DNA from: Raillietiella orientalis | Lineage: Eukaryota | Direction of reading: 5' to 3' | Length of the DNA: 64,000 nucleotides | NCBI GenBank assembly: GCA_036172245.1 | Contig: JAYWIR010000032.1 | Location: forward strand, 2,170,001-2,234,000 | Shown: positions 21,282 through 47,388 of the stretch, in pieces | How the letters are laid out: each line of letters begins with the position of its first letter | How positions within the stretch are numbered: the first letter of the stretch is position 1 | Program-made: the position numbers and the translations under genes | The notes under the pieces: model-generated | Told to the model about the DNA's origin: nothing | Databases searched by the model: none | What the model saw: only the letters and a program-made list of their open reading frames with translations

Positions 21282-24089
21282 GACGTCTGCAGAGAGGACC
21301 TACAGTCCCTCATCATCCAGGAAGGGAGCGACGGATAGGAGGCGATCTGCAGAAGTGCAGAATTCGCCCAACATCTTCTCCCCACCCTACTGAACATCGC
21401 AGGACAGTGCGTCTCCCCCGCAAAGGAGGATCGGTCCTTCGTCCTCCACCTCAAGGCCTTCGAGTGTTTCTGCGACCGCGACGTCCTTACCGCGTAAGCG
21501 GATCGCGCCATTGTGCACGCCCTATGTCGGAAAGCGGATCCCACGAGGGGCATCCACTGAGGACGTCTACGATGTGCTCTCCGTGGCGCGCGTTTCCCCC
21601 CAAAACAGACGAAAATCTCGCACAAACCGGACATCGGCGGAAGACTCCTGGGTCTCTGGTTGGTGATCAGAGCGGAGGTGCGCGGCGAGAAGCGGCGGCC
21701 GAAAAGAAGAAGTCCGGAGGTCGAGTGCGGCGAATGCATGCAACTGGGGCACATCGGGTGCGCACGCCCTGCACTGGCAGCGGGAGCTTCTCGCCCAGCA
21801 TCCTGCGATCCGCCACGTGGGGAGGATAGGCCCGCGAATCCAAGCATCGCCGAACGGGAACTCGATAGGACTATCCTCGATGGCAGCGACGCCCCTTGGA
21901 CAGTCGGCATGCATGCAACAACAGGTTCCCTTCTGCACGCCCTCTCCAGATGCGCACGCGTTTTCGCGCGGCTGCCCTCCAGAGAAGCGCGCCGTCGTGT
22001 CGGGGAGAAACGTTTCGCTTGGCTGCTGGGACAGCACCACGCCGGTGGCTGCCTTACTGTTTCAGTGGCAGAGACCAGATCGCTCGGATCGATGACGACC
22101 GTGGATGTGTGGCTGGCGCGAAAACCTTCTCCAAGTTCCTTAGCAAAGTGGTTTTCTCGGTACTCCACCTTTGGAGGAAGAGAGTTGAGGGGAATTCGAG
22201 GGTTGTTCAAGTTCTATCCTGTCCCTACGCATCCGACCATCCCTCTCCGGTGTCTCTGTGATTACCTACGGAAGCTGTAGATGACGTTGCCATTGATTAC
22301 CCTGTTGCCGCTACGGCAGCTAGGGACGCTGCTTTCGTGTCCGCGGTCGCATGTAGCGTAGCCACCATCGTATCGATCGTGCCACTAGGCAACCGTGATG
22401 CCTTCGATGCTCCCCGTTGACGTCTCACTGCTTTCTGGCAGCAGACATCGTCAACCTGCATGCTCTTCCGCGACGCTTACTCGCTTGGGGCACGAACGCG
22501 CGAGAAATTCCAGTCTAGGACACTCGAACCAGGGGAGCCACTGCGAAGACGAGATGTTCCTCCCAGGAAGAATTCTCCACCATCAGGATTTGCCGTGCTT
22601 CTAAATATCCAAGAATGCACATGAATTCGGTGTCAGCACCCGCTACGCAGCACCCCTCCCGCCCCCCAAGAGTCAATTAACGCCTAGACTGCGAGACAAC
22701 ATAGGCTTTAAGGACAAGGGAGACATCAGCGTTCCAGGATAGCACGTGGCCACGTGGCCGCAGAAACCGTGCCCTCCCTTTTCTGAACCTGTGGAAATCT
22801 CGAACCAATTCCGGAAGAGAAAACGTCGATGCAATGCCGGATATTGCGCCGGTCCAGCACCTCTCAAAGCACTCCTGATCGTGAGAATGCGTGCACCCCT
22901 GTCTCCGACGGTCCAGGTTTGTCGGTCCCAACCACACCGACAACCTACACACCAGAACTTTTCCTGAAGAAGAAAACGAAGAAACATTGCTGCGGAGGAA
23001 GGAACGCCGAAGAGCAAGGTCGGCGTTGTCCGACATAACCAGGAAGAGAAGGTGGCGCTTTCCTTAGCATAGTGAGTTGAGCACACCACCGCAGCCTCAG
23101 TAGCAGACAACGAACGTGTCCACTTAACTGCTTGCACAGCAGAAGACAGTCACTCGGAGACCAGAAGAGCAAGACGAATGCTCCTCCTAATTCAGGGACG
23201 ATGCTCCGGAACAGACGCCACGCCCGAGACCAAGAAAAGTGGTGCTTCCCACCCGCAATACGAGCCACGGTATGCCCCATCTCTCGCTGGAGGCTAGAGG
23301 TGTCAGCCTCCTGGATGAACGCCGCCATCCCCGTGCACACTGGAAAACGTTCGCTCTTCATCCCAAGGCACTCCCGCGGAAAGGTGGCGGGCAAAGCGAG
23401 CTGCGGGAGCGGACCCGCAATAGCGCGCGCCTGAAAGGAGAGAAGTGCCGGGCGAGCAGCGAGGCGCAGCTCTACCGTCGTGCCAGCAAACAACGGGCGT
23501 GCGCACATGGAGAGGAGGGAAGCCAAAGACATCATCACCAGCACAGTGGCACTCCTCAGAAGGGAACGACCGCACTCTGCACTGCAAAACGACGCCTTCC
23601 AGCATCCCTGACGATGAAGTGTTGCTCTCCATCTTCCGTTCCTCATTACTTGTCAGCACCGTTTCGTGCGACCAGCGTCACTCCTGGGTGGCACCTCTAT
23701 GGAACTCGTTCTCGCGTGAAGCCATCCCGCTGCAAGACCGCACTCATCGCCTTCCCAAGCGCGCGCTTCCTTTTTCCCTTCCGAAGTAGGAAGGCTGCAA
23801 ACCGCCCACGCTTTCGAACGACACTCGCCGCTAGAAGCAGAATTTCAAACAACGGATGTTTGCCACCTTGCCAGGTCCACACGCCGTTTGTCCTGTGGCT
23901 GCTACGTGGGTAAACGACAAACGAGGAACTCCTAGGTTGGTGATGCACCATTGGCATGAGAACACCGCTGATCCGGAGGCAGCGCCCGATGACGCGATCT
24001 CTCCTGAGATCTCCTGACTCGCATCCACGGAACTCAGACTTTGACGTCATAAACCTCTGCCGATATTCCCGGAACAGAGAAATGAACAG

Positions 24090-24159
24090 TGCAGAACACA
24101 GCAAAAGACATGCGCAGAGAGCGTTTCGAGAGTACGCGTGTGCACCTGGACTTGCAGAG
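24090..24159 (+). repeat. 70-bp internal direct repeat C (second copy at 26768-26837; mirror copies ~45853-45922 and ~43175-43244)
   Basis: tgcagaacacagcaaaagacatgcgcagagagcgtttcgagagtacgcgtgtgcacctggacttgcagag matches 26768-26837 with a few mismatches. Confidence 0.85.
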
Positions 24160-27100
24160 CCACCCCAAGCTTTCCGACGCTTTGCCCCTCCACGGATGGA
24201 GAAGACGTCGTTCTTTGGCAACTCTGCCTCGTGCAGAGCGACCTCTTTCCCCGGTCCCCCTTGCGAAGCGCAGTCTCTTCCATTCGCCAGCCGAGCAAGC
24301 GCCTTCGCGCTCCCAGAGGCGCGTGGAACGCGTCCGCACCACGCGTCCAGCCTACGGAAGGAAGGCGCAGGCGCACGGAATGCGCCTGCGTACGCCGGCA
24401 CAGCCAAAGCCACGGACGGCCGCCGTTGCGTTTCGCCGCGTGATGGTCACCAGTGCAGTGCAAGCAACACGAGCTCTCCCTTCCCGGAGGATGCTCCGGA
24501 ACAGCGACGCGACCAGCGGCTCTCGTGGAGGCAGATCATTCGTTTTCCTCTTCGCGAAACCGGAAACGCCGAAGTCGCTCTTCGCAGCGGCTGCTCCCGG
24601 TCGGCCGCCGCTCGAAGGACAAACCACGGCAGCCACGAACGTACCAGGAGATTGTCGTTCCCAGCACAGGAAAGAGAATAAACGTTTGCAGAGGAACCAA
24701 CCCCAGGAACGTTCCGGCAGCATACCCCGAAAGGAAGGTCGTCTCCTTTTGGCTTCTGCACGGGAACCGCGGAAGCAACCCGGAAACCCCTGGATGCGCG
24801 CAGACATCCGGCGTAATCACTTCCAATCCCCGCTAACGAGCGGTTGCATCCGGTCGTCGACCACGCACACCTGTCATTCGGGTGGCACACCCCCAAGCCC
24901 AGCAGATCAACGACGACCTGCGGTGTGACCCGAAACCCGCGACGCACTTTTCACCCTGGGCGTTGACGCTTCAAGAGGATTCGAACCCGCAACGCTTGGT
25001 GACGTGCTCGGCCAGCAGCAGCAGTCGCACGGCCTGCACAGCGGACACGAGAGTATCCTTACCGCCTTCCGGCTCCGCTCATCCCAACCGCCCCCATCCG
25101 CGATCGCAGCATCGCCGGCCAGGGAGCTCGTTCGTGGCGCGCGCCTCGAGCATCTGCAACCAGCATCCCAGGGGCGATCCGCACGTCAAGGCGCTGCTGA
25201 CGGCCTGCAAGACGCGAGCAGCACAGCAGGACGCTGCGGCGCGGTGGACCACCCGCGTCTCCGCGTTCCATATAGAACTCTGCGTGGGCGGAGAGCGCGT
25301 GCTCGAATCCATCGATCCACAATCCACGCAGTGAATTTAACGGACGCATTTGATGGGCGGCTCGTGGCCTGCGAGCCGTTGTCATGGAGCATCTGCCTCT
25401 TCACGGTAGCCGTTGCTCCTCGCGTCAGTCAGACGGCGAGAAGCGCACGCGTCCCGGGCTCGCCGGCGCCGGCGCTCCGCATCGCCAGGCGGCAAGCGCA
25501 CGGCAGAACGCTGCCCCTTGCGCCTCGGGATCCGCGCCTCTCCATACTCGCTGCACCCTCCCAAAGGCGGCTAGAGACCCGACGGCGAGGAGACCGGTTG
25601 CGCGGTCAAGCGACCACAGCCCGATTCGCTCTCTGTTTCCACGTAACCTTGCGCCAGAAACGTCGTGACCACGAAAGTGCGGCTCACGAAGAGAACGAGC
25701 GGAGTGTGAGCTGCTGTAGAAGGAAGCAAGGGCGTCGCTGTAGCGCCCTGGAGATGACCTCACTTCCGGGTGGTCTCCGGTACACGGCTCTTGCGAGCCG
25801 CCTTGCCGCGCTGAAGACGGGGTCTCCGCAATTCCGAGGACATTCCGGATCTGCGCATTGCCACGCGACGCGACGCGGCATACGATGAGAGAGGAGGAAG
25901 TGTGGTCCCTCCCGCAACTGGTCCATCGCTACGTCCATCAGAGTGCACGTCGCCTTTCAGCAGCGACGCCGTGGAGGATTTCCTCATACGAGATGAGATG
26001 GGTTCACCAACGGAAGATTGGCGCGGGCGAGCCGACTGACTCGCGTCCGAAGCGTGACAGTGCGCGTGTGCACTCGGCGCGGCCGTGTCTTCCTTCCGGT
26101 CCAGCTCCCAGCTTGCCGCTAAAGAGAGAGCCGTCGGACCGCAACCGCCAGCAGCTCCTGTAAAGCCAGGCGAGCGTGCGGATGGCGTTTAAGCCTTCTC
26201 GGTCGAAGGGGTGGCACCCGCGGCGATGAGGAAGGCAGGCCGATCGTCCTCCCATCCGAGGGCAGCCTGCCGATCCGCCATTGCCCTTCCACAGACCTGC
26301 CTACCCGTTCCCCTCCTCCTGAGTCACCTCAGAAGCTGCGGAACGAAGGGGTCGCGCCGGCGTCGACCTGGGGCGAGCTTTATTTCCGCGTTCCGAAGTC
26401 CAGCGGCCTTTCCTGGCGTCCTCCTGCGTCTCGACCCGAGGTCCAGCAACGGGATCGTGTCGCCACCTGACGTCACGTCATCGGAATGCTCCGTCGTCGC
26501 CTGGAAGCAGCCTTCCGCTGGCGCCAGCGGTCTCGAAGCCAGGGATCCACCATGGTCCTCCACCCGACTTGCCCAACGGGCACCGGTACCTCGCAGGAGC
26601 CGCGTGACCCGTGGCAACCGCAGCGGCCGTCCTGCTACCACGTCGGCGTTCCTACGAGGGTGCCAAGAATCCCGCGCCACGAGGCTGGAGGTCGCAGCAG
26701 GCGGTCTCTGAGTGGACCATGACTTCGAGAAATGCACGCTGATCTCATCCAAGCCGAGTCTGGACAATGCAGAACACAGCAAAAGGCGTGCGCAGAGAGC
26801 GTTTCGAGAGGTCGCGTGTGCACCTGGACTTGCAGAGTCAGTCTTCCCCTGGGATGGCGTCGCCGGCTCGGTTAGGGGGGTAGCGCCTGGAGAGCGCAGA
26901 TCCCACCGGAGTGGACGTGGCTCCCGTCCTCCTGATCGCCCGAACGACCCCCACAGCAAATCCGGAAGGCGCGCTGCCGACTGCCCTGTAGGCTCCGTGG
27001 CCCACGCGTGGACCCGCGTAAACATCTGGCGTGGAGGCCTTTCGGGGACTCCGCGACCGGGGGGAGATCGCCGTGTGCCGCAGCATCCGGGACGCGAGCC

Positions 27101-27430
27101 CCCTCGCTGGCGCTGATCCTAGCCTCGCCTGGCCGCCTGCATCGCTCTCTCTCTCCCCCCTACCCCCGGGAAGGAAATTTCGCTCCCGCGGTGTCGTCGG
27201 GCGCGGGTCTCGGAAGTACTGGACGAAGCCGTCCCGCGCGCTGAAGGCGCCGCATCCTGAAAGCACCCGCTCACGGCAGCGAGCCTTCTTGCCCTCGTCG
27301 ACCCGTCCGCGACGCACCCGCGGGCTGCTGCGACTGACAAGACGGCGGGGGACGTGCCCTGTGCGTTGGGATGCTGTATTCCGGACAATGGGACCTGCGG
27401 TGAGAGAGGCGGGCGGCGCCTCGTCCGCGC

Positions 27431-29707
27431 CTACGACCGCGTCCTGGCGAACGTCACCGTCCACGTGACCAGGTCCACCAGCGTCTTCACCTTTTCCAGC
27501 AGCATCGTGGAGATGCTGAAGACGCCCTCGCCGCCGTCGTCCACGAACTTCAGCAAGCAGAGGGTGGAGTTGACCTGGACATGCGAGGGTCACCACGGGC
27601 GCGCACGACCTCGGCGTCGCCCTTGCGCGCAAGTTGCCGCAGGCTCCCGGCGAGAGGGCAGGCAGACCCGCCCGCGCCCGCCGCAGGCAGACGCGGCTGC
27701 CGACGGCACCGACAGCGATCGCTGAACCGGAGGAGCTCCGTGTGGCGCCCGGGGAGCCGCGCGCACGTCCACTCGGGACGCGGCAGCACCGCCGGCGCCT
27801 TGATTTCCCCGTCCTGCTCCTTCCGCGCGCGCCGTATCCTCGTCCTCCTCGTTCCGACGCCAGCACTCACCTTCCAGACGTAGTCCTTCTTCCTCAGGAT
27901 GACCCGCACCTTCCTCCCGAAGTCGTAGACCACCTTGGGCATCCTCCTGCCCCTGCAGGCCACCTGCGCGGGACGCGTGCGCGTGCGCAACGGGAGGGTC
28001 GCGCGCTCGCGCCTCACCTCGTACGCCATCGGGTCGAAGGTCGCCTTCTTGGCCCGCGTGTCCTCCACGATGCGGTCCACGAACTCCTTGGGCGCGCCTG
28101 CGAAGAACGTGCTGGTCGTCAGGATGCCCAGAGGGTTGGCCAGCGTCCACCGCTCGTCGATGAGCACCCTGAGGCGGCGCGAGCCCTCAGCACTTGCCCT
28201 CCCCCCCCCCCCTCAGCCGCCGCTGAACCGACGGACTTTCCTCCCAGGCAGGGCCGCTGGCGCCCACCCGCTCACCTGCAGAAGAAGAACCGGAAGTCCC
28301 TCAGTCCGGACGTCAGCTTCAGCTGCGATCCCCTCTCAAAGCCCTTCGTCTTCCCGAAGACGATCCTCCCTCCTTTGTTCCTGGACCGGGACGTCCAGGC
28401 AGTTCCAGAAAACCCGCGACCGTGCTCACCGTTTGAAATGCAGGGTCACCATCTTCTCCGTCAGCAGAGACGTCACGTACTCGATGACCACCGTGGGTCC
28501 GAACGGGAACGCCCCCGAGAACTCCAACCCGTTGACCACGCTCTCGGGGCCGGGGTCGTACAGCATTTGGCTGATCTTCTGGGTGGAGCCGAGGACAGGC
28601 TGCTCGCTGGTGTTGACCTGCATGGGGGCACGGGAGCGCCACGTCCAGAGTCCGGGAACCCCGCGGGCGCCTCCCCCTCCTCCTCGTAGTCGTCGTCCCC
28701 CGCTGCCTTCGTCCCCTAGAGCCCCGCGGGTGAGCGCCCGCGTTCTTCCACCAGCTGGCCGCCGCTCGCGTCCGAGCGGCGCCGCCGTCGCCATGTGCGG
28801 CCGATCCGCGGGCGAGCCGCAGCGATCCCTATGACACGCGCGTCGCCAGCGTACCGGCGAGCGCACCGAGCGACGGCGCTCGTTCGCTGGCTTCGCCAGC
28901 GAGGCGACAACGACCGTGCTCGGAGATGGAGCGTGCGCGAAAGGCGCGGACGCGCCGGTGCGCCTCCAGCCCGCCGAACTAGGGGCCCAGGGGGGCGCCG
29001 CCTGGCGGAAAGCGCGTGCGATTTTCGGAGCGAACCGCGCGCCACCCTACCCGGCCGCAGCGCCGACAGCGCGCTCTCTCTCGACACGGACAGCCGGCCG
29101 CGAGCCGGAGGGGTCAGGCAGGATGGGCGGGGCCCGTCACCGCGGTGCTTCCTTGCCTGCAGCATGTCGGTCCCCTTGTTGCCGTACACCAGCGTCCCGT
29201 AGAAGTAGGTGGCTGCCCTGCCGTGCAGGCTCTGGTAGGTCTCGGACTCGTCGACCTTGAACTCGGGGTGGCGTGCTGCCGGGTGAGGTGCGGCAGCGCG
29301 CCGTGTGCACGAGGTCGCTTCGGGGCAGCTTACCGCACCAGGAGGTCGTGCAGTTGAAGGGCACCCACACGGTCGACTCGTTGGCGTGGACGGTCATGTT
29401 GAACGCCTGCTCAGGGGTGCCAAGTCCCACGGACAGGAAGTACAGGTGCTAAGGCGACGGCTCGCGACGGGCGGCTGGCGGCACGACACCGCTCGCGTAC
29501 CTGGTCGTAGGTCAGCAGCAGGGTCGGCGCCTCCACCCAGTTGCAGCTGCGATTCCGGTCGGGATCGCGGCATCCCGGTCGTCCGTCCTCCACCTGGCAG
29601 CGCACGACCGTTTCCCGAGCTGCGTTGTGCGTCGCCACCAGCACCAGCGCGGCGGGCAGACGTATCAGAGGAAGAACGAGAGCTGCCAACAACCGCACCT
29701 TCGCCAT
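27431..29707 (-). CDS. Secreted pepsin-like (family A1) pseudo-protease, copy 1 (mirror of 40307-42581)
   Basis: Exons 29707-29501, 29448-29334, 29275-29157, 28617-28430, 28380-28276, 28168-28018, 27963-27871, 27574-27431. The coding sequence appears identical to copy 2. The only difference noticed in the gene is a 2-nt poly-C length change in intron 5 (about 28201). Confidence 0.9.
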
Positions 29708-32482
29708 GGTCCACGAATGACGGCGACGGCAATCGGCACCTGCAGCTGCTGGATGCGCGCGCGACGCACGCGCTGCCGCTCCGCGTGCTCAGCGCCAGCG
29801 CGTCGAGCGATGCGCATCTTCTGCAGAGGGAAAAGCCATGCTGCGCACCGCGGCCGTCCTCCCGTTCGTTGTCATCCCTTCCTCTTCCCCGGACCGTGCG
29901 AAAGCGGAGCCCATCCACCCGAGGGAGATGCGTCGCGCGCCTCCGGCCTTCCCTCACCTCCGCTTCCCGGGGACGCCCAGGAGGTTTCGTACTTTGCTTA
30001 TCCTGCGGTGGTCGGGTCCCCCTTCAGGCCACGAGTCCCGGCAGCCCCAGCCGAATCGTGGCGTTCGCGCGTGCGACCTACCGAACGCCCGCACGTTGTG
30101 GGCACCGGGAGGGAGACGGGGCGCGCGCCGGTGGGACGCGTCGTGGGTACGCGGCCGGTGTGGATGCCGTGGCAACCGCAGGATGCGGGTGACAAAGAGA
30201 AAGGGAGAGCTGTTCCGTGGACGGAAGGCGAGGGTTGAAGGATGCGCGCGACCGCAGCGGGCAGGTGGTGACGGCCGTGCTCCCGCCTCGAGGGCGCTCG
30301 AGGGCCGGCCACGAGACGATCACTGCGTCCGGAATCTCCGTGACGATCGTTCCTCAAATAGATGTGAACAATTTTTCCTTCGTCCTGCAGGGTGCAGGGT
30401 CACTTGATATTTAGGGTGAACCTTCATTTAGGTGGTTCAGCTAGTGATTTGTTCATGCTCGCGTGCAGGATTTTCGGCGTGAATCCTGCCCAGATGCCGT
30501 AGACGGGCGAATGTTGGTTGTTATTGAATTGCACGAAGTCTGGCTGCTATGGGGGGTACGCGGTTGCGTAGGTGATGTTCTTTTTCTTGTGATAGGGGTT
30601 TGAGAATATGTCGCTGGTTGTCGCATTTTTCGTAAAGGAAAGGGGGCTTCAGTGGGATGCTGAAGAAACTAGACGTGGCTGTTTACTTGCACGTCATGTA
30701 GCTGGTTCGAGAAGAAATGGAGAAGACTGCGAGAGTGTCTTCTCGATTTCTTGGTGTAGGTTGCTTCTGTCTCTAACTGCTTCAGATCTGTTTCTCTGCA
30801 ACCGCGAATGTCCTCTTCCGACGCGCAGCTGAAAAAGGAGATCGGACTCCTGTTTCAGGACCTTGGAAGGAGCCCATTGGCACTCTCGGATCTTCTGATG
30901 AGCCCGTGGGTTGGTACCGATAGTGAATGGTAATTCGCAATCTGTCTGGGATTGCTGATTCTGCGTTTTGTTTGTTGCTAGGTGCTTTGGTCAGTAGCCT
31001 GAAAGCAATACTGCGCTTCTTGCATGTCGATGGACCGCGGAGACATCTTGCGTTTTGGAATGTGTAGGAAGCGTCGATTACTCGAAGGGAAGCGCTGGAG
31101 GCGTCCAGGGTTGTTGCGCGGAACCATCAGCCGCCTTTTCAGGGTTGACATGCTGGGTGATGTCGCGCTATGGGGGACATGAATTTCCAGTGAGAGCCAT
31201 GCTGACGAGAGTAGCGAAACCGCGCCATCTTGTGTCCCCTCGTTCGGGAATGCGACAGCGCAACTGCGTGCGCACCGTCACTTTCGGTCGCTGCTCGCAA
31301 CCCCTTTTAACCTTTCGGTTCCAACAGCGCGTTCTCTTTCGCAGCCTGGGTGTTCCTGGTGACTTGACTTTGTTTGCTGCTAAGTGAGGGCATCGGCTGC
31401 CGGGCGAGGCTTCGACGCCGGAAGCCCTTTCCGACGACCTTGAGGCTTGGGCTGTGCTTCTCCGTCATGTGCGGATGGGTGCGCGCCTTAGTCGGCACTG
31501 TGTGGCGGCTGGTGTGTCGGTTGTTCCGTTGTCCTCGGAGCCAATTTTCCCCGTCAGTCGCGCTTTCTGATAGAGCTGTGGTGAGCAGCATTGTGGCCGG
31601 TGAGCCTCCCGAAGAGTTTGGCACAGACCGGTGAGTGTCACCCCGAGCAGGCAGCTGCTGCAGTGACCCTTTTGCTCCGCTTGTTGCCCAAGTGACTGCG
31701 GCTCCCCGCGCCGACCTGCTGTGTTTCTTCCCGTAGCTCCTGCTTGGCGCGAACGGCCTCTTCCTTAGGGATGTGGCGGGATTCCTCGTCATGCTTTGAT
31801 GCGGCAGCTGCGTGAGGATCGATAGCGATGCCTGCGTGCCTCTGTCACGAAGCGGCGACCTTTCCTAGAACGCGCGACGCGCCAGCGTGCCCCTTCTGTA
31901 GGACAGCGAGTAGCCGGCTCTAGAGCTTGCTACCCTAAGGGGAGTTTCCTAGGTGGAAGCTACTGCTGTGGTCACTGCCGTTGGAGCAAAGAAGGGTGCG
32001 CCGGAAGGTGCGGCTCTCTTGAGGACATGTGCGATGGGAGCAGATGCGCTGCACTTGTTGGTTTCAAAGTGGAAGACGCGTCCTGAGGGCGGTGTTCTCT
32101 CCGTCCCCGTGAACCAGTTTTGTGCGACAAGTTGCCGTGCCAAGACTGCTAGAGTCTCCCACGACTCATGGTCTCGCGCTGTAGTGAAACTCGCTTGAAT
32201 CTTGTCACGGCCGCTTAAAACCTTGCGCATCCCGGCTTGTCTCCTCCGATGCCTTTCGTGGTCTGTGTGATTCTTCCTTCCGCGGTAGCTGAGCTGCGGA
32301 GCTGGGTGGTCAAACGCAACTCGTGATCCGCGCGGCCTGCGGTGCTCAAGCCTTCTCTGTGGACGCAGCCCTGTCGCCTAACGGGGGGGCCTTCTCTGAA
32401 CGGTGTCTGCAGCATCAGTGAGAAATCCCCCGTTTCTTTTCCTAGGATTTGTGGAAGACGCTCCCAGCTTCCACATTTTGCG

Positions 32483-35073: not shown

Positions 35074-36699
35074 CGACCCCAGCATCCCGCTGAAGTGCCC
35101 GATTTTTTACGAAGAATGTGACAACCAGCGGATTGGTCCCTCAGACCACTTTGACAATAAAATGCACGTTACTCAGGCAACGGCGTACTGCTTCCAGCTG
35201 CCAGTCGCCTTGCGACTCCGCCCGTGGATCGCATCTGAGCTGGAGCTACCCCGAAGACCCGTGCGCGCGACTGCGACCTCAAGACCACGTAGTTTTTCGG
35301 CGGGACGCTGCGGACACGCCTCGTGACCAAGAGCTGACAGCCAGCGGGTTGAGAGACATGGGGGCTCGCCGCTAGGCGGGTGGCAGGGGTAATGGGGGAT
35401 TGCCCTCACCCTCGCACGCTCCTGCCGGCGCCCTCGCGACACGCTGTGAGCGTCGGCGCGACTGCAGCCGTTCGGACTGTGACCGTCTGCGCGACTTCGG
35501 TCCCCGCCAGAAGAGTGCGAGGGGCGCGGCTCAGGCATTACCGAGGGCTCTGTCTGTGGACAGGTCGCGGAACGCTGGATCGCGTTCTCATTGGCAAGAG
35601 GGCCTCGTGTAAGTTGATGCGCGCGGCCCGAGCGAAACGCGGCGAGTGCAGGATGCAGACCAGTCTCCGCCCATTGCGACCAACCTCCGGAGGCCGCAGA
35701 AAGCCCTGGAAGTGACGCAAGCTGGACGGGGCGGATCCGCCGCGGCCGACTACGGAAAAGCGGACCGCAGGCCCTGCGGCTGGGTGCGCAATCCGCGTCC
35801 CTTGAAGGCGAATCCGCGCTGCACAGAAGGAGCGCAGAAGTGCGGCCGCGTACGCCGACGGGAAGTCGCCCGAGGGAGTAGGGCGGATGCGCGTCTCAAG
35901 GAGGCCGACCCGTGGCGTCCGGTCCCTGCTGCCTAGGAACTGGACGCCTGAGGCATGCACGTCCTCAGTCACGAGGCGCGCAAAAGAGGGATCTACACAG
36001 ACGCCCCTAACATTAGGCAGGAGGCGCGCGAAAGACATGCACGCGATCCGCGGACGCGACGGTTGCTGATCGACCGCAGCGCCGGAAGGGAAATAGGAGC
36101 GCGCGAGGAGGGGCGGTAAGAGATGGGACGTGGCGAAAGAGGAAAGGGCACGGGAAGCCGCGATGACCACCCCTGGGCACCCGAGTGAAAACGGTGCTCA
36201 CCGGGCGAAACACGGGCTGGAGGGATGGCGGCCACACGGAAAGCGGCGGCGCCAGAGATGTGCCGGTGCAGGGGGTGTCCGCGACCCGGGAGGGGGCCTC
36301 CCCCAGGAGTCTGGGACGCATCCCAGGGAGTTCACACTTCCCGAGGAATCACGCTGGTGAGCAACCCGCAGCACGTGTGCGCGGCTGTTCGGCTTGGACA
36401 CCGACTCGAAATATGGCACGCCACCATCGATGAAGTCGTGAGCGAGTTTCAAAGTCGGCTGGCGTAAACCCGAAGTGCGCATGCGCACGGAACGCTGCCC
36501 AGCGGAAGAACCTGAGAGCACGCCCGTGTTATGAGGGGACTTCACTCCTATAGCACTGGAAGGTTGACCTCGATGCGCCGCGTCGCGATGGCCACATGGA
36601 AGTTTGCGACGACCGCAGACGGGAACGGAGCGACCGGATCGCACCCAGTACCTTCTACAGGAGGTCCACTGGATCCCCTGGGAAGAAGCACGCAGTGTC

Positions 36700-38630
36700 G
36701 AAAGAGTAATAGGCTAAAGAACCTGGTGCTAGGGAAGTCTCCTAACTCCCGAAACCGGAATCAGGGATGCCTATGAGGAACGCGCCTTTCGACGACGAAG
36801 GGCGAATTGGGCAGGTCTCCTTGGGGTAGTGGCTGGAAAACATAGGCCTAGTGAGGACGAACACATGGACTTCTCCAGCCGACGAGACGGCAGTCACGTT
36901 TTGTGGGACCTTTGAAAGGAATGGCTGAGTTGTCACCCGGGTGCGCCTAGGGCGTTTATTTGAGATTGTCAACGTTGTGCTGGGGGCAGTACTCTGAATC
37001 CTCTGTAGGATGCAGAGGCGAAGGTCTGGCTGATTGGAGTTGCCTCTTCGAGAAAATGGAGGTCCCGCCCAACAGGGGGGAGCTGCTTCCGCTCTCGTCC
37101 TCGCGAACTGCTCGCTAACGGCACGGTTAGGGAAGACTGCAAGTTATTTGATGTGCCCGGCGCGATCCCATGCGCCTCCCGGTCGAAGCACGGGATCGAA
37201 CCTTTTCCCGGCGCACACGTGGTTCCAGGTCCGAAGAGGAACCCCCAGGAGGGAATCAATCCGAGAGACGGAAGCGCCCAATGCATGGAGATTCCCCGCA
37301 TCAGAACCTCCGGCACGGAGACTCCAGCCCTCACATCTCCTCGGTCCCCTCACACCTCCAGTTGTTTGCTCTTCTGCCGGCTGAAGGCTTATATCAGCGT
37401 TTCGTCTCGGCCGGTGCGCCTGCGGCGTGCCGGTCAGAAGGGGGTCAAGCAAGGAGACGGCACAAGCCGGTTCCCCTTCGGCTGCTGCTCAGAAGGTCCA
37501 CAAGGCACTAACAGACCCACTGCCCTCCAGCCGCCACACAGTGGGACTCGGCATTTGCAGGCAACCCGCTCCCCCTCCAACTCCGGCAGGCGCGCTGGAG
37601 GGGTTCCCTGGGGGACTTTAGCAATGAACAGGATCACGTGCGAACAGGGAAACGTGAGCAAGGCGGTGCTTTCGGGAGCAGACGGCAGTCAAAACACGGA
37701 CTGGTCTTCGCTGGGAATATCTCTGGGGGACCACCTCGGATACCTAGGTGCCCTCATCGTCCCAGTAGCAAAGAATAATTGACCCCCTCCGAGGTTGGCA
37801 GGTTCCTCCCGCCCGAGCGAGTGGCTGTTTAGTACACGTCTGCGGTCTCACCCGGGAGACTACGTGAAAAAGGAAATGTCGAGGTGCTCCAGATAGGCAA
37901 AAGCTGCTTACCCGAGCGAGTGGCCGTTTGGTACACATCTGTGGTCTCCAGGGTGAGCAGTGCACGCCCCTTTCGGATGCCATTTGACTGCTGCGGTCTC
38001 CGAGCGTGCCTTCAACAAATGTAGCGGGTTCGAATACTCCGACAGAAATCGAGGCAGTGCGTCGTGGGTTCGAGTTCCTCCCGCAAGATGACACTGGTTG
38101 ACCTACATTCATTCGGGTGCGGAACTGGTAGCGGCTCAAACAGGATGCACCCGATGAGGACTGGGATTAATGGGAGTCGACCTCCGGGTCCTTCCAGGAA
38201 TCAAGGAGTAGCAGTTCCCCTCCGGTTATGAAGGAGCGGATCCTCATTCCGGAAGGACCCTCCGCGTCATACTGATAGGGTAGGTATCACCAGCACCTCT
38301 CCAGAGAGTGCAGAGAAGCGAGCCAATCCCTTCGGGGAAGCTGCATCCTTCTGAATTTCGGAAGTCTCCCTTCTGGGTTCTCTTTAGAGGAGTAAACAGG
38401 AACGGATACCTTGCGGGTTCCCTAAAGAGAAGAAATTCCTGATAGTGGATCCTTTCTGGTTCCCTTCGAAGATGAAAAATGGAGCGGACCCCCGGACAGG
38501 GTTCCTCCGGACAGAATAAGAAAGAAGATTTTCTTATGGGTTCCCCTATGGAGACGACCAGGGTGGAGCTTCCCTTGCGGGAACCTCCCCAGAAGTGAGA
38601 GGAACGGACTCCGAAGCTTCCTGGATTCGT
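36700..38630 (-). mobile_element. Degenerate DIRS-like retrotransposon relic (includes repeat family A copy at 38170-38630)
   Basis: Minus-strand LPPVGRDLHFLEE...SYRGFRVLPP (~36980-37085) resembles the DIRS1 RT N-terminal PVGGRL..F...W......GY...F...PP motif. It lies downstream of the family-A segment. No intact RT or tyrosine recombinase was seen. Confidence 0.35.
37812..37950 (+). repeat. Imperfect ~38-bp tandem duplication spaced ~99 bp apart
   Basis: cccgagcgagtggctgtttagtacacgtctgcggtctc (37812) versus cccgagcgagtggccgtttggtacacatctgtggtctc (37911). Confidence 0.75.
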
Positions 38631-39623
38631 GATGCAACAGTGCACCTGTAGCAGCGGAATACCTGCCTGTTATCAGGGCGACATCAGGAGGGGAAAAAAT
38701 CTCCCCTTAAAGGAAATGGCTGCAGCCCAAACCTCGGCCGCCGACCAGGCAGTCACAAAGCGGATGACGTCACTGAAGTTTTGGCGCAGAACCGAAAGAA
38801 GGAAGAACCGAAACGCGCGATGAAGACTGCCTAGCCTCGAGGGACTCTCCTCCACTGGAGCAACAGAAGTAGAATATGCAGAAGGCACGACTGAAACGGC
38901 CAGAGGCGAACCCTTGAGCTTTCGGAGCTGATTCCCTGCAGCCTGCGAGGCGGACTGCAGCCTGGCGACCTGCGGGCAAAGTCCCCCGTGGACAGATGCA
39001 GGCCCAGCCAAATCCCACGGGCCGCGCAGGGAAAAAAAGATGCGTCGAAGGGAATGAAACGGCCCGTGGACGTCCTGGGAATTTGGGAGGATGTACTACA
39101 AGTCGCACACGCCGATCTGTTTGGAAGAACATCTCCTTTCCCTCACCATCCACTGGGACCTCCTCAAGAATGATCTGCTTCACTGCTCCAGGGAAGAGTA
39201 AACCCAAGATGCAAAAAATGCGAAAGGGATCCGACCTTCCCACATCTCTTAACAGTGAGCCCCCAATATGGATGAAGGGAAATGCCGCAAAGCACTTTCC
39301 ACCCATACCCGACCACCGACGTTCTGCTAAGGCGGCCTTTCCAAAAGAAAAGTTGCTCCAGAATAGCGGTCTCCATCATAGAGTTTATCCTTCGGGTCGC
39401 CATGGTAAACAAGCACATTCCAGCACATGAAAAACGGAACGCCAGTGTGCTCCAGATAATCAAAAGACTGCTCATTACAGCGCGCAATCGTCACATCCGA
39501 GAGAACTAGACATGAGCACAAGCGTCCGAAAACCCACACCCTCACCCTCATCCGCCATCCACCCAACTCCCCACCAAACCACCCCTCACTACAGGTGATG
39601 AGATAATAGAATGATCCCTAACT

Positions 39624-42600
39624 CTGCAGGACGAAGGAAAAATTGTTCACATCTATTTGAGGAACGATCGTCACGGAGATTCCGGACGCAGTGATCGTCT
39701 CGTGGCCGGCCCTCGAGCGCCCTCGAGGCGGGAGCACGGCCGTCACCACCTGCCCGCTGCGGTCGCGCGCATCCTTCAACCCTCGCCTTCCGTCCACGGA
39801 ACAGCTCTCCCTTTCTCTTTGTCACCCGCATCCTGCGGTTGCCACGGCATCCACACCGGCCGCGTACCCACGACGCGTCCCACCGGCGCGCGCCCCGTCT
39901 CCCTCCCGGTGCCCACAACGTGCGGGCGTTCGGTAGGTCGCACGCGCGAACGCCACGATTCGGCTGGGGCTGCCGGGACTCGTGGCCTGAAGGGGGACCC
40001 GACCACCGCAGGATAAGCAAAGTACGAAACCTCCTGGGCGTCCCCGGGAAGCGGAGGTGAGGGAAGGCCGGAGGCGCGCGACGCATCTCCCTCGGGTGGA
40101 TGGGCTCCGCTTTCGCACGGTCCGGGGAAGAGGAAGGGATGACAACGAACGGGAGGACGGCCGCGGTGCGCAGCATGGCTTTTCCCTCTGCAGAAGATGC
40201 GCATCGCTCGACGCGCTGGCGCTGAGCACGCGGAGCGGCAGCGCGTGCGTCGCGCGCGCATCCAGCAGCTGCAGGTGCCGATTGCCGTCGCCGTCATTCG
40301 TGGACCATGGCGAAGGTGCGGTTGTTGGCAGCTCTCGTTCTTCCTCTGATACGTCTGCCCGCCGCGCTGGTGCTGGTGGCGACGCACAACGCAGCTCGGG
40401 AAACGGTCGTGCGCTGCCAGGTGGAGGACGGACGACCGGGATGCCGCGATCCCGACCGGAATCGCAGCTGCAACTGGGTGGAGGCGCCGACCCTGCTGCT
40501 GACCTACGACCAGGTACGCGAGCGGTGTCGTGCCGCCAGCCGCCCGTCGCGAGCCGTCGCCTTAGCACCTGTACTTCCTGTCCGTGGGACTTGGCACCCC
40601 TGAGCAGGCGTTCAACATGACCGTCCACGCCAACGAGTCGACCGTGTGGGTGCCCTTCAACTGCACGACCTCCTGGTGCGGTAAGCTGCCCCGAAGCGAC
40701 CTCGTGCACACGGCGCGCTGCCGCACCTCACCCGGCAGCACGCCACCCCGAGTTCAAGGTCGACGAGTCCGAGACCTACCAGAGCCTGCACGGCAGGGCA
40801 GCCACCTACTTCTACGGGACGCTGGTGTACGGCAACAAGGGGACCGACATGCTGCAGGCAAGGAAGCACCGCGGTGACGGGCCCCGCCCATCCTGCCTGA
40901 CCCCTCCGGCTCGCGGCCGGCTGTCCGTGTCGAGAGAGAGCGCGCTGTCGGCGCTGCGGCCGGGTAGGGTGGCGCGCGGTTCGCTCCGAAAATCGCACGC
41001 GCTTTCCGCCAGGCGGCGCCCCCCTGGGCCCCTAGTTCGGCGGGCTGGAGGCGCACCGGCGCGTCCGCGCCTTTCGCGCACGCTCCATCTCCGAGCACGG
41101 TCGTTGTCGCCTCGCTGGCGAAGCCAGCGAACGAGCGCCGTCGCTCGGTGCGCTCGCCGGTACGCTGGCGACGCGCGTGTCATAGGGATCGCTGCGGCTC
41201 GCCCGCGGATCGGCCGCACATGGCGACGGCGGCGCCGCTCGGACGCGAGCGGCGGCCAGCTGGTGGAAGAACGCGGGCGCTCACCCGCGGGGCTCTAGGG
41301 GACGAAGGCAGCGGGGGACGACGACTACGAGGAGGAGGGGGAGGCGCCCGCGGGGTTCCCGGACTCTGGACGTGGCGCTCCCGTGCCCCCATGCAGGTCA
41401 ACACCAGCGAGCAGCCTGTCCTCGGCTCCACCCAGAAGATCAGCCAAATGCTGTACGACCCCGGCCCCGAGAGCGTGGTCAACGGGTTGGAGTTCTCGGG
41501 GGCGTTCCCGTTCGGACCCACGGTGGTCATCGAGTACGTGACGTCTCTGCTGACGGAGAAGATGGTGACCCTGCATTTCAAACGGTGAGCACGGTCGCGG
41601 GTTTTCTGGAACTGCCTGGACGTCCCGGTCCAGGAACAAAGGAGGGAGGATCGTCTTCGGGAAGACGAAGGGCTTTGAGAGGGGATCGCAGCTGAAGCTG
41701 ACGTCCGGACTGAGGGACTTCCGGTTCTTCTTCTGCAGGTGAGCGGGTGGGCGCCAGCGGCCCTGCCTGGGAGGAAAGTCCGTCGGTTCAGCGGCGGCTG
41801 AGGGGGGGGGGAGGGCAAGTGCTGAGGGCTCGCGCCGCCTCAGGGTGCTCATCGACGAGCGGTGGACGCTGGCCAACCCTCTGGGCATCCTGACGACCAG
41901 CACGTTCTTCGCAGGCGCGCCCAAGGAGTTCGTGGACCGCATCGTGGAGGACACGCGGGCCAAGAAGGCGACCTTCGACCCGATGGCGTACGAGGTGAGG
42001 CGCGAGCGCGCGACCCTCCCGTTGCGCACGCGCACGCGTCCCGCGCAGGTGGCCTGCAGGGGCAGGAGGATGCCCAAGGTGGTCTACGACTTCGGGAGGA
42101 AGGTGCGGGTCATCCTGAGGAAGAAGGACTACGTCTGGAAGGTGAGTGCTGGCGTCGGAACGAGGAGGACGAGGATACGGCGCGCGCGGAAGGAGCAGGA
42201 CGGGGAAATCAAGGCGCCGGCGGTGCTGCCGCGTCCCGAGTGGACGTGCGCGCGGCTCCCCGGGCGCCACACGGAGCTCCTCCGGTTCAGCGATCGCTGT
42301 CGGTGCCGTCGGCAGCCGCGTCTGCCTGCGGCGGGCGCGGGCGGGTCTGCCTGCCCTCTCGCCGGGAGCCTGCGGCAACTTGCGCGCAAGGGCGACGCCG
42401 AGGTCGTGCGCGCCCGTGGTGACCCTCGCATGTCCAGGTCAACTCCACCCTCTGCTTGCTGAAGTTCGTGGACGACGGCGGCGAGGGCGTCTTCAGCATC
42501 TCCACGATGCTGCTGGAAAAGGTGAAGACGCTGGTGGACCTGGTCACGTGGACGGTGACGTTCGCCAGGACGCGGTCGTAGGCGCGGACGAGGCGCCGCC

Positions 42601-45600
42601 CGCCTCTCTCACCGCAGGTCCCATTGTCCGGAATACAGCATCCCAACGCACAGGGCACGTCCCCCGCCGTCTTGTCAGTCGCAGCAGCCCGCGGGTGCGT
42701 CGCGGACGGGTCGACGAGGGCAAGAAGGCTCGCTGCCGTGAGCGGGTGCTTTCAGGATGCGGCGCCTTCAGCGCGCGGGACGGCTTCGTCCAGTACTTCC
42801 GAGACCCGCGCCCGACGACACCGCGGGAGCGAAATTTCCTTCCCGGGGGTAGGGGGGAGAGAGAGAGCGATGCAGGCGGCCAGGCGAGGCTAGGATCAGC
42901 GCCAGCGAGGGGGCTCGCGTCCCGGATGCTGCGGCACACGGCGATCTCCCCCCGGTCGCGGAGTCCCCGAAAGGCCTCCACGCCAGATGTTTACGCGGGT
43001 CCACGCGTGGGCCACGGAGCCTACAGGGCAGTCGGCAGCGCGCCTTCCGGATTTGCTGTGGGGGTCGTTCGGGCGATCAGGAGGACGGGAGCCACGTCCA
43101 CTCCGGTGGGATCTGCGCTCTCCAGGCGCTACCCCCCTAACCGAGCCGGCGACGCCATCCCAGGGGAAGACTGACTCTGCAAGTCCAGGTGCACACGCGA
43201 CCTCTCGAAACGCTCTCTGCGCACGCCTTTTGCTGTGTTCTGCATTGTCCAGACTCGGCTTGGATGAGATCAGCGTGCATTTCTCGAAGTCATGGTCCAC
43301 TCAGAGACCGCCTGCTGCGACCTCCAGCCTCGTGGCGCGGGATTCTTGGCACCCTCGTAGGAACGCCGACGTGGTAGCAGGACGGCCGCTGCGGTTGCCA
43401 CGGGTCACGCGGCTCCTGCGAGGTACCGGTGCCCGTTGGGCAAGTCGGGTGGAGGACCATGGTGGATCCCTGGCTTCGAGACCGCTGGCGCCAGCGGAAG
43501 GCTGCTTCCAGGCGATGACGGAGCATTCCGATGACGTGACGTCAGGTGGCGACACGATCCCGTTGCTGGACCTCGGGTCGAGACGCAGGAGGACGCCAGG
43601 AAAGGCCGCTGGACTTCGGAACGCGGAAATAAAGCTCGCCCCAGGTCGACGCCGGCGCGACCCCTTCGTTCCGCAGCTTCTGAGGTGACTCAGGAGGAGG
43701 GGAACGGGTAGGCAGGTCTGTGGAAGGGCAATGGCGGATCGGCAGGCTGCCCTCGGATGGGAGGACGATCGGCCTGCCTTCCTCATCGCCGCGGGTGCCA
43801 CCCCTTCGACCGAGAAGGCTTAAACGCCATCCGCACGCTCGCCTGGCTTTACAGGAGCTGCTGGCGGTTGCGGTCCGACGGCTCTCTCTTTAGCGGCAAG
43901 CTGGGAGCTGGACCGGAAGGAAGACACGGCCGCGCCGAGTGCACACGCGCACTGTCACGCTTCGGACGCGAGTCAGTCGGCTCGCCCGCGCCAATCTTCC
44001 GTTGGTGAACCCATCTCATCTCGTATGAGGAAATCCTCCACGGCGTCGCTGCTGAAAGGCGACGTGCACTCTGATGGACGTAGCGATGGACCAGTTGCGG
44101 GAGGGACCACACTTCCTCCTCTCTCATCGTATGCCGCGTCGCGTCGCGTGGCAATGCGCAGATCCGGAATGTCCTCGGAATTGCGGAGACCCCGTCTTCA
44201 GCGCGGCAAGGCGGCTCGCAAGAGCCGTGTACCGGAGACCACCCGGAAGTGAGGTCATCTCCAGGGCGCTACAGCGACGCCCTTGCTTCCTTCTACAGCA
44301 GCTCACACTCCGCTCGTTCTCTTCGTGAGCCGCACTTTCGTGGTCACGACGTTTCTGGCGCAAGGTTACGTGGAAACAGAGAGCGAATCGGGCTGTGGTC
44401 GCTTGACCGCGCAACCGGTCTCCTCGCCGTCGGGTCTCTAGCCGCCTTTGGGAGGGTGCAGCGAGTATGGAGAGGCGCGGATCCCGAGGCGCAAGGGGCA
44501 GCGTTCTGCCGTGCGCTTGCCGCCTGGCGATGCGGAGCGCCGGCGCCGGCGAGCCCGGGACGCGTGCGCTTCTCGCCGTCTGACTGACGCGAGGAGCAAC
44601 GGCTACCGTGAAGAGGCAGATGCTCCATGACAACGGCTCGCAGGCCACGAGCCGCCCATCAAATGCGTCCGTTAAAGTCACTGCGTGGATTGTGGATCGA
44701 TGGATTCGAGCACGCGCTCTCCGCCCACGCAGAGTTCTATATGGAACGCGGAGACGCGGGTGGTCCACCGCGCCGCAGCGTCCTGCTGTGCTGCTCGCGT
44801 CTTGCAGGCCGTCAGCAGCGCCTTGACGTGCGGATCGCCCCTGGGATGCTGGTTGCAGATGCTCGAGGCGCGCGCCACGAACGAGCTCCCTGGCCGGCGA
44901 TGCTGCGATCGCGGATGGGGGCGGTTGGGATGAGCGGAGCCGGAAGGCGGTAAGGATACTCTCGTGTCCGCTGTGCAGGCCGTGCGACTGCTGCTGCTGG
45001 CCGAGCACGTCACCAAGCGTTGCGGGTTCGAATCCTCTTGAAGCGTCAACGCCCAGGGTGAAAAGTGCGTCGCGGGTTTCGGGTCACACCGCAGGTCGTC
45101 GTTGATCTGCTGGGCTTGGGGGTGTGCCACCCGAATGACAGGTGTGCGTGGTCGACGACCGGATGCAACCGCTCGTTAGCGGGGATTGGAAGTGATTACG
45201 CCGGATGTCTGCGCGCATCCAGGGGTTTCCGGGTTGCTTCCGCGGTTCCCGTGCAGAAGCCAAAAGGAGACGACCTTCCTTTCGGGGTATGCTGCCGGAA
45301 CGTTCCTGGGGTTGGTTCCTCTGCAAACGTTTATTCTCTTTCCTGTGCTGGGAACGACAATCTCCTGGTACGTTCGTGGCTGCCGTGGTTTGTCCTTCGA
45401 GCGGCGGCCGACCGGGAGCAGCCGCTGCGAAGAGCGACTTCGGCGTTTCCGGTTTCGCGAAGAGGAAAACGAATGATCTGCCTCCACGAGAGCCGCTGGT
45501 CGCGTCGCTGTTCCGGAGCATCCTCCGGGAAGGGAGAGCTCGTGTTGCTTGCACTGCACTGGTGACCATCACGCGGCGAAACGCAACGGCGGCCGTCCGT

Positions 45601-47388
45601 GGCTTTGGCTGTGCCGGCGTACGCAGGCGCATTCCGTGCGCCTGCGCCTTCCTTCCGTAGGCTGGACGCGTGGTGCGGACGCGTTCCACGCGCCTCTGGG
45701 AGCGCGAAGGCGCTTGCTCGGCTGGCGAATGGAAGAGGCTGCGCTTCGCAAGGGGGACCGGGGAAAGAGGTCGCTCTGCACGAGGCAGAGTTGCCAAAGA
45801 ACGACGTCTTCTCCATCCGTGGAGGGGCAAAGCGTCGGAAAGCTTGGGGTGGCTCTGCAAGTCCAGGTGCACACGCGTACTCTCGAAACGCTCTCTGCGC
45901 ATGTCTTTTGCTGTGTTCTGCACTGTTCATTTCTCTGTTCCGGGAATATCGGCAGAGGTTTATGACGTCAAAGTCTGAGTTCCGTGGATGCGAGTCAGGA
46001 GATCTCAGGAGAGATCGCGTCATCGGGCGCTGCCTCCGGATCAGCGGTGTTCTCATGCCAATGGTGCATCACCAACCTAGGAGTTCCTCGTTTGTCGTTT
46101 ACCCACGTAGCAGCCACAGGACAAACGGCGTGTGGACCTGGCAAGGTGGCAAACATCCGTTGTTTGAAATTCTGCTTCTAGCGGCGAGTGTCGTTCGAAA
46201 GCGTGGGCGGTTTGCAGCCTTCCTACTTCGGAAGGGAAAAAGGAAGCGCGCGCTTGGGAAGGCGGTGAGTGCGGTCTTGCAGCGGGATGGCTTCACGCGA
46301 GAACGAGTTCCATAGAGGTGCCACCCAGGAGTGACGCTGGTCGCACGAAACGGTGCTGACAAGTAATGAGGAACGGAAGATGGAGAACAACACTTCATCG
46401 TCAGGGATGCTGGAAGGCGTCGTTTTGCAGTGCAGAGTGCGGTCGTTCCCTTCTGAGGAGTGCCACTGTGCTGGTGATGATGTCTTTGGCTTCCCTCCTC
46501 TCCATGTGCGCACGCCCGTTGTTTGCTGGCACGACGGTAGAGCTGCGCCTCGCTGCTCGCCCGGCACTTCTCTCCTTTCAGGCGCGCGCTATTGCGGGTC
46601 CGCTCCCGCAGCTCGCTTTGCCCGCCACCTTTCCGCGGGAGTGGCCTTGGGATGAAGAGCGAACGTTTTCCAGTGTGCACGGGGATGGCGGCGTTCATCC
46701 AGGAGGCTGACACCTCTAGCCTCCAGCGAGAGATGGGGCATACCGTGGCTCGTATTGCGGGTGGGAAGCACCACTTTTCTTGGTCTCGGGCGTGGCGTCT
46801 GTTCCGGAGCATCGTCCCTGAATTAGGAGCATTCGTCTTGCTCTTCTGGTCTCCGAGTGACTGTCTGCTGCTGTGCAAGCAGTTGAGTGGACACGTTCGT
46901 TGTCTGCTACTGAGGCTGCGGTGGTGTGCCCAACTCACTATGCTAAGGAAAGCGCCACCTTCTCTTCCTGGTTATGTCGGACAACGCCGACCTTGCTCTT
47001 CGGCGTTCCTTCCTCCGCAGCAATGTTTCTTCGTTTTCTTCTTCAGGAAAAGTTCTGGTGTGTAGGTTGTCGGTGTGGTTGGGACCGACAAACCTGGACC
47101 GTCGGAGACAGGGTTGCACGCATTCTCACGATCAGGAGTGCTTTGAGAGGTGCTGGACCGGCGCAATATCCGGCATTGCATCGACGTTTTCTCTTCCGGA
47201 ATTGGTTCGAGATTTCCACAGGTTCAGAAAAGGGAGGGCACGGTTTCTGCGGTCACGTGGCCACGTGCTATCCTGGAACGCTGATGTCTCCCTTGTCCTT
47301 AAGGCCTATGTTGTCTCGCAGTCTTGGCGTTAATTGACTCTTGGGGGGCGGGAGGGGTGCTGCGTAGCGGGTGCTGACACCGAATTCA
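39624..47388 (-). repeat. Right arm of the large inverted repeat
   Basis: Begins ctgcaggacgaaggaaaaattgttcacatc at 39624 (reverse complement of 30361-30390) and ends near ccgaattca at 47388. About a dozen substitutions and 3 small indels versus the left arm, seen by eye. Confidence 0.97.
40307..42581 (+). CDS. Secreted pepsin-like (peptidase family A1) protein, both catalytic Asp lost (pseudo-protease), ~373 aa, copy 2
   Basis: Manual 8-exon model: 40307-40513, 40566-40680, 40739-40857, 41397-41584, 41634-41738, 41844-41994, 42049-42141, 42438-42581. All phases fit; introns are GT-AG except intron 3 (GC-AG). Kozak-like ccATGg and hydrophobic N-terminus (MAKVRLLAALVLPLIRLPAALVLVA). Pepsin landmarks occur in order: LYFLSVGLGTPEQAF, VWVP..C....C..H, ESETY, FYG, EFSGAFPFG, GGRIVFG, AGAPKEFV, YEVAC..MPKVVYDFG, DYV, CLLKF, VDL...TVTFA. 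Confidence 0.9.

Follow-up and report, generated by a model that had tools for sequence, protein, structure and literature searches.

The window that we have analysed, a stretch of 64,000 nucleotides (nt) of contig JAYWIR010000032.1 of Raillietiella orientalis, to whose positions all coordinates given below refer, contains a palindrome with a spacer: two near-identical arms, one the reverse complement of the other, each carry a complete copy of the same multi-exon gene, and the unique sequence that separates them carries a single gene with a MYND and a SET domain. Inverted gene pairs of this sort are known and fairly common, and the locus adds no new type of genomic structure; our analysis is concerned with the organisation of the locus, with the proteins that it is predicted to encode and with the uneven distribution of the differences between the two arms, from which their history may be read.

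Arms, spacer and junctions

Global alignment places the left arm at positions 22622-30390 (7769 nt) and the right arm, which matches it as reverse complement, at positions 39624-47388 (7765 nt); the two arms differ by 12 substitutions and three insertions or deletions (indels; CTC, C and CC), i.e. they are about 99.8% identical over 7.77 kb. The comparison of the window with itself by BLAST returns the arm pair as a single inverted alignment (22613-30402 against 47397-39612, 99.69% over 7792 nt), and a repeat finder has recovered the same pair as four collinear inverted pieces of 4849 nt (100% identity), 2200 nt (100%), 586 nt (97%) and 186 nt (100%). The near-identical, inverted arms claimed in an earlier note on this DNA are found at exactly the same coordinates by global alignment, and in self-BLAST they form one of only two non-self pairs in the 64 kb (E ≤ 1e-10); a match of 7.8 kb at such identity is far beyond chance.

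Between the arms lies a spacer of 9233 nt (positions 30391-39623), which is unique, as had been claimed for a spacer of 9.2 kb, and has no long self-similarity or internal symmetry: the only similarities within it are an inverted pair of 109 nt at 73% identity (30556-30662 and 35080-35188) and a direct pair of 38 nt. The entire structure measures 24.8 kb, with arms more than 99% identical and inverted around the unique spacer, as is characteristic of palindromes, and it is located in an uninterrupted part of the contig, as there is no N in the window.

Both boundaries of the arms, outer and inner, are sharp to within about 25 nt. The two outer flanks show no similarity to each other beyond the boundary (BLAST, 4.6 kb of each flank), where only an overlap of 38 nt with the boundary is returned. 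Directly outside the outer boundary, a short stretch (positions 22598-22621, against 47389-47412) shows partial similarity in register, with matches at 14 of 24 positions (P ~7e-4; P 0.007 over 32 nt and P 0.006 over 40 nt, the lengths of the stretches having been picked after inspection); at the inner boundary, the same in-register test gives a weak result (P ~0.03). Further out, gapped local alignment of the 150 nt past each boundary performs no better than shuffled sequence (outer P 0.17, inner P 0.96). The short outer stretch may be duplicate sequence that has been eroded, or microhomology at the point where the copy was joined. The site GAATTC (EcoRI-like), located near the outer boundary, was considered as a boundary feature and rejected as a coincidence, since the similarity runs outward past it.

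The inner end of both arms falls exactly on the self-complementary hexamer CTGCAG (positions 30385-30390, mirrored at 39624-39629). Fold-back priming at breaks is proposed as a route to inverted duplications (PMC10622511), and the location of the inner end of the homology on such a hexamer, which could let a 3' end prime on its own strand, is a point of likeness with these models; it is suggestive only, because self-complementary hexamers cover 1.6% of the positions of the window and CTGCAG is frequent in this region. The present locus also differs from fold-back inverted duplications, in that its 9.2-kb spacer is far longer than typical loops and in that the right flank must have been joined on in a second event.

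Genes of the arms and of the spacer

The gene of the arms has been modelled from a three-frame reading of the right arm, combined with a reading at the DNA level. The right copy consists of eight coding exons on the + strand (40307-40513, 40566-40680, 40739-40857, 41397-41584, 41634-41738, 41844-41994, 42049-42141 and 42438-42581), which join into an open spliced frame of 373 codons that spans positions 40307-42581 and ends at a TAG stop codon. The exons of the left copy, on the - strand (29501-29707, 29334-29448, 29157-29275, 28430-28617, 28276-28380, 28018-28168, 27871-27963 and 27431-27574), are exact reverse complements of those of the right copy, so that the two coding sequences are identical; the claim of one intact eight-exon gene per arm, pointing outward, is in agreement with this model in all eight exons of both arms. 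The introns, of 49-539 nt, have an overall guanine-plus-cytosine (GC) content of 74.5%; six of them are of the GT-AG type and one, intron 3, which is also the longest (539 nt; 40858-41396, in the left arm 28618-29156), has a GC donor (CAG|gcaagg) and is of the GC-AG type. Across the whole span of the gene there is a single difference between the arms, a run of C in intron 5 (C10 versus C12, at 28201-28202 / 41811). The start codons are located 683 nt from the inner ends of the arms, so that the 5' ends of both genes face the spacer.

A scan for excess GC at the third codon position ranks the exons of the arm gene and the SET open reading frame (ORF) of the spacer highest, with a third-position GC of 0.91 for the arm gene and 0.77 for the SET gene; neither arm has, in its outer 4.8 kb, a codon-position GC signal comparable to that of the gene. 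The window contains no further paralogue of the arm gene, the tblastn matches besides the two arm copies having E values of at least 0.25.

The earlier note had named the product of the arm gene a pseudo-pepsin, a name that we find plausible but thinly supported, because only exon 2 is recognisably pepsin-like and the D-T/S-G catalytic motif does not occur anywhere in the 373 residues. When the 38 residues of exon 2 are compared with the sequences of solved structures, 56 chains are matched at E ≤ 10 (best E 0.0011); all 32 chains at E ≤ 0.052 are renin, cathepsin D, cardosin, pepsin or pepsinogen, proteinase A or phytepsin, with alignments that invariably cover one stretch of 30 residues, around the first catalytic motif. 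In the alignment with renin, His-Ala-Asn of the arm protein is placed opposite Asp-Thr-Gly. Histo-aspartic protease, in which the first catalytic Asp is replaced by His, is found among the weaker matches. Scored exon by exon, exon 2 reaches 17.3 bits (E 0.0034) against the Pfam family Asp (PF00026), i.e. it remains below the cut-off of 19.9, and 17.5 bits against TAXi_N, the cut-off of which is 30.

The support for the name thus lies in the match of exon 2 to proteases of the A1 family and in the replacement of their catalytic motif, whereas the other seven exons give no pepsin match: neither these exons nor the in-frame read-through of exons 6-7, each scored separately, match any Pfam family, and for exons 3, 4 and 8 and the exon 6-7 read-through no related solved structure was found (0, 0, 1 and 1 matches, respectively, all unrelated, at E values of at least 0.67). 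An Atlas look-up of exons 6-7, with a best score of 0.77, provides a lead only; the later exons, compared by eye, look collinear with proteins of the pepsin family, which we likewise take as a lead and not as a test. Among 1.84 billion representative proteins, the search for relatives through exon 2 has returned five multi-stretch matches, to proteins of 593-4267 amino acids, which we have judged uninformative; a word-indexed search aimed at longer proteins gives no match at E ≤ 10, so that two very large collections of proteins have yielded no close relative of the arm protein.

The predicted protein contains six N-X-S/T sequons and eight cysteines, and its hydrophobic N-terminus, read by eye, looks like a signal peptide. 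With moderate confidence, the arm gene is predicted to encode a secreted, glycosylated, non-catalytic pepsin-like protein; if the protein is in the A1 family at all, it would be a non-catalytic member. Inactive homologues exist in the A1 family, e.g. the cockroach allergen Bla g 2, the ruminant pregnancy-associated glycoproteins and the wheat xylanase inhibitor, and the arm protein resembles the inactive members of the family in that its exon 2 aligns to the first catalytic region of renin, cathepsin D and pepsin. The arm gene would in that case belong to a class, pepsin-like proteins that have lost both catalytic motifs, the functions of which in arthropods are mostly unknown.

The gene of the spacer is a single-exon ORF on the + strand (positions 32483-33934; 483 codons from the first Met, followed by a stop codon). 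The longer ORF that contains it (32327-33931) matches two Pfam families above their cut-offs, zf-MYND with 44.2 bits (residues 56-92) and SET with 35.2 bits (residues 104-320); of the 150 ORFs of at least 70 amino acids between 22.4 and 39.7 kb, no other passes a Pfam cut-off. The SET domain is split by the MYND zinc finger, which is the defining arrangement of SMYD proteins. At E ≤ 1e-3, 13 relatives were found, all mapping to a single locus in the window; of the seven that are named, all are insect SmydA-8, SmydA-8-like or msta proteins, the best at 35% identity. The protein is thus best described as SmydA-like, an assignment that derives from named relatives at no more than 35% identity; the title of PMC5459927 calls SmydA genes arthropod-specific, and the source of the DNA would by this be most likely an arthropod without close kin in the collections searched. 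A single intact MYND-SET gene had been claimed for the spacer, and one ORF with both domains, at one locus, is what it contains.

The same claim had added relics of transposable elements, which we do not recover as such: the 150 ORFs of at least 70 amino acids in arm and spacer yielded no protein domain of transposon type, and neither did the smaller spacer ORFs of 42-69 amino acids, of which 61 out of 71 were scanned (the other ten, which overlap the SET ORF, were left out); only non-coding dispersed repeats are present, such as a repeat of about 0.6 kb at 38047-38628, which matches positions 1812-2386 in inverted orientation at 74% identity.

These results, together with the structure of the outer ends, also bear on the nature of the unit as a whole. 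Inverted ends around an internal segment resemble some DNA transposons, and the palindrome might on that account be a large mobile element, with the 7.8-kb arms as its terminal inverted repeats; no direct repeat of 5-12 nt, however, which would correspond to a target-site duplication, flanks the outer ends of the whole unit or either of its arms, no transposase, integrase or reverse-transcriptase domain is present in the arm and spacer ORFs that were scanned, the window contains no further copy of the unit, and the arms bear an ordinary, spliced gene of host type. We have rejected this explanation, as a very remote one, for want of a target-site duplication and of a transposase in the ORFs scanned.

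Two short ORFs of the spacer, 34882-35070 and 39058-39198, both on the + strand, show a moderate codon-position GC signal and no Pfam match; they could be small exons or remnants. Each arm also contains a direct repeat of 80 nt (24083-24162 and 26761-26840, with mirror copies at 43172-43251 and 45850-45929; 91% identity), which is probably a short dispersed element.

Distribution of the arm differences

The 12 substitutions are distributed along the arms in three steps. The outermost 562 nt (positions 22622-23183, partner 46827-47388) are the most diverged, with seven of the 12 substitutions (1.25%) and the CTC indel; the 3313 bp of the middle segment contain the other five (0.15%); and the inner 3894 nt (positions 26497-30390, partner 39624-43515), i.e. 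the core that comprises the gene with 683 nt of upstream and about 0.9 kb of downstream sequence, contain none (0%). If the substitutions were spread uniformly, the probability of finding at least seven of the 12 in the outer 562 bp would be 5.9e-6, and that of finding none of the 12 in the inner 3894 bp would be 2.4e-4; the contrasts between adjacent segments give P = 5.4e-4 for outer versus middle and P = 0.02 for middle versus inner, and none of 1e6 uniform permutations reaches the observed mean distance from the centre. Protein constraint fails to explain the identical core, because the core is mostly non-coding: its 2772 non-coding bases, out of 3894, contain no substitution, while 4.2-8.6 would be expected at the rates of the outer-lying sequence.

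The substitutions comprise eight transitions and four transversions, with one of the 12 at a CpG dinucleotide, and the indels are located in a CTC repeat and in runs of C; in these respects, the differences look like real mutations. The G or C state is carried by the right arm at seven and by the left arm at four of the 12 sites, a count made from the two arms only. The GC content of the arm, per kb, is 0.575 at the outer end and climbs to about 0.71 near the inner one; this rise fits GC-biased conversion, but it proves nothing, because the region of a trypsin-like gene elsewhere in the window is also GC-rich.

In the simplest reading of the gradient, the arms have overwritten one another more than once, with the inner part always included and the outer edge rarely; the gradient therefore points to arm-to-arm gene conversion with tracts of kilobase length, and not to a young duplicate that has been left untouched. 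A comparable pattern is described for the human Y palindrome P6, in the part of PMC3723533 that concerns it, with multi-kilobase conversion tracts and paralogous variants near the outer boundaries of the arms.

We consider it the best explanation, with a probability of about two in three, that the locus is a real inverted segmental duplication, i.e. a palindrome with a spacer, that has been homogenised by conversion; that the duplication is real, conversion aside, is highly probable. An inverted copy of one 7.8-kb segment would have been placed beyond the 9.2 kb that bear the SmydA-type gene, probably through a template switch during replication or repair. Afterwards, the arms would have exchanged sequence through intrachromosomal gene conversion, which the gradient suggests; with the inner halves overwritten most recently, the gene would be free of substitutions, together with its introns and the 683 bp upstream, whereas divergence at the outer edge has grown to 1.25%. 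The outcome would be a gene present in two identical copies that are placed divergently, with a secreted, N-glycosylated, catalytically dead pepsin-like protein as its predicted product. Arm-to-arm conversion had already been brought forward in the earlier note: the strongly non-uniform distribution of the arm differences speaks for it, although it is inferred here from one pair of sequences.

Several points weigh against this explanation. The whole argument for conversion is built on 12 substitutions in that single pair, in which no conversion event is seen directly, and differences in mutation rate along the arm, where GC rises from 0.575 to ~0.71, could contribute to the gradient. The structure itself is known here from one assembled contig, on which all four junctions rest, and the metagenome contigs that were scanned with two exact patterns of 34 nt, one from close to the inner arm end and one from exon 2, gave 0 matches to each.

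Differences in rate are also what a second explanation would need, according to which the locus is a very young, real inverted duplication that was never converted, with its uneven differences caused by a higher mutation rate in the outer part, where GC is lower, and by constraint in the region of the gene. The low overall divergence (12 in 7769), the presence of the arm gene and of its likely promoter in the identical part, and the shift of base composition along the arm are all in line with it. It would, however, require an 8-fold difference in rate between adjacent non-coding stretches (P 5.4e-4), and 2772 non-coding bases would have had to stay wholly unchanged (P 0.015 to 2e-4); a hot region driven by methylation is not indicated either, because only one of the 12 differences is at CpG. 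We regard a young, unconverted duplicate as unlikely, if the least unlikely of the alternatives.

The dependence on one contig leads to a third explanation, an assembly artefact, in which the genome would contain a single copy of the arm, the second being a mis-placed haplotype or the product of a chimeric join, and the overall difference of 0.15% would be heterozygosity. A value of 0.15% falls in the range that heterozygosity takes in animals, and lists of palindromes that are based on assemblies contain false positives from mis-assembly, as noted in the relevant part of PMC7953838. The artefact would nevertheless require two wrong joins, at precise points, in a contig without N, whereas both outer flanks and both ends of the spacer are unique; in addition, the arm differences are ordered by their distance from the centre of symmetry, an order for which alleles have no reason. 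False haplotype duplications are, moreover, usually direct or located at the ends of contigs. A single chimeric read, a read with a missed adapter or a fold-back read is an unlikely source, because two new junctions, two distinct unique flanks and 9.2 kb of unique spacer would have to be accounted for; the argument of the earlier note against a fold-back read artefact holds in this respect, given the long unique spacer, the unique flanks and differences that look biological (8 transitions : 4 transversions). An artefact of assembly is in our view slightly less likely than the young duplicate, and the uniqueness of flanks and spacer argues for a correctly assembled locus.

A further possibility keeps conversion and changes its setting: an old palindrome could be maintained by polar conversion that is anchored at the centre and starts preferentially on the side of the spacer (e.g. 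through hairpin-templated repair), in a non-recombining environment, for instance on a sex-limited chromosome or in an asexual lineage. The 3.9-kb core with the pseudo-protease gene would then be kept identical while the outer edge erodes, and the gene pair would be preserved. We consider this improbable, more so than either the young duplicate or the artefact. Dosage doubling, self-repair, inversion of the spacer, and sex linkage or asexuality, all raised by the earlier note, are reasonable ideas for palindromes as a class and conjectures for the present locus.

Related palindromes and neighbouring sequence

Among known systems, the nearest parallels of a duplication homogenised by conversion are the palindromes of the sex chromosomes of primates and mice, e.g. 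palindromes P1-P8 of the human Y and those of the X. The sections of the literature that describe them report arms that are more than 99% identical and carry genes, with the identity ascribed to conversion, as well as conversion tracts of multi-kilobase length and infrequent crossovers that invert the spacer (PMC3723533, PMC8327919, PMC8981503, 10.1101/800185). The present locus resembles them in its two inverted arms of more than 99% identity, its unique spacer and the coding genes in its arms; it differs from them in the size of the arms, which measure tens of kb to Mb in mammals and 7.8 kb here, and in the type of evidence, as the mammalian palindromes have been studied through populations and outgroups, whereas conversion is deduced here from one sequence pair. 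“Large” palindromes are defined in 10.1101/800185 as those of more than 10 kb, a limit that the whole structure, at 24.8 kb, exceeds here and a single arm, at 7.8 kb, does not.

The second parallel is found in an arthropod, the springtail Folsomia candida, for which, together with other parthenogenetic animals, palindromic blocks of collinear genes are described as possible substrates of gene conversion, in the parts of PMC5490193 and PMC7953838 that deal with these blocks. The blocks of Folsomia candida resemble the present locus as gene-bearing inverted duplications inside one scaffold of an arthropod genome; they are defined by the collinearity of several genes, whereas here there is one gene per arm in DNA that is near-identical. 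The synonymous divergence (Ks) of those blocks is widely spread, and the authors see no general concerted evolution. The comparison set consists, furthermore, of parthenogenetic animals, whereas the present locus is known from sequence alone, and nothing in it shows parthenogenesis.

If the assembly is right, the locus offers an arthropod palindrome of compact size, with a trace of conversion that can be read as a gradient of identity in three steps over 7.8 kb, and it doubles a gene for a predicted secreted pepsin-like protein without both catalytic motifs, a doubling that may be of importance to the animal. Each arm fits, with both of its junctions, in a single long read, which makes this a convenient locus for the study of the length, direction and GC bias of conversion tracts, and of spacer inversion, outside mammals.

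The palindrome stands out from its surroundings in base composition: per 2 kb, its GC content is 0.57-0.69, against 0.38-0.55 in much of the flanks (0.376-0.686 across the window), and the region is full of long ORFs that are meaningless (276 of at least 60 amino acids), because it is GC-rich. No RNA gene was found in the window, either as an Rfam family at the gathering score or as a transfer RNA, and there are no tandem repeats between positions 20000 and 50000. The left 22 kb of the window have almost no coding signal; they contain the second of the two non-self pairs, a direct repeat of 185 nt (17562-17746 and 21098-21281, 95% identity).

On the right side of the palindrome, a multi-exon gene for a trypsin-like serine protease is located at positions 53275-58133, on the - strand. 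Two of its ORFs match the Pfam family Trypsin (53275-53880 with 78.3 bits and 55181-55618 with 51.9 bits), a third (57372-58133) has a start that resembles a signal peptide, and its relatives, 50 matches at 28-39% identity, are spread over birds, insects, one mammal and one bacterium, a mix that tells nothing of the taxon; the palindrome thus neighbours another gene of the secreted-protease type.

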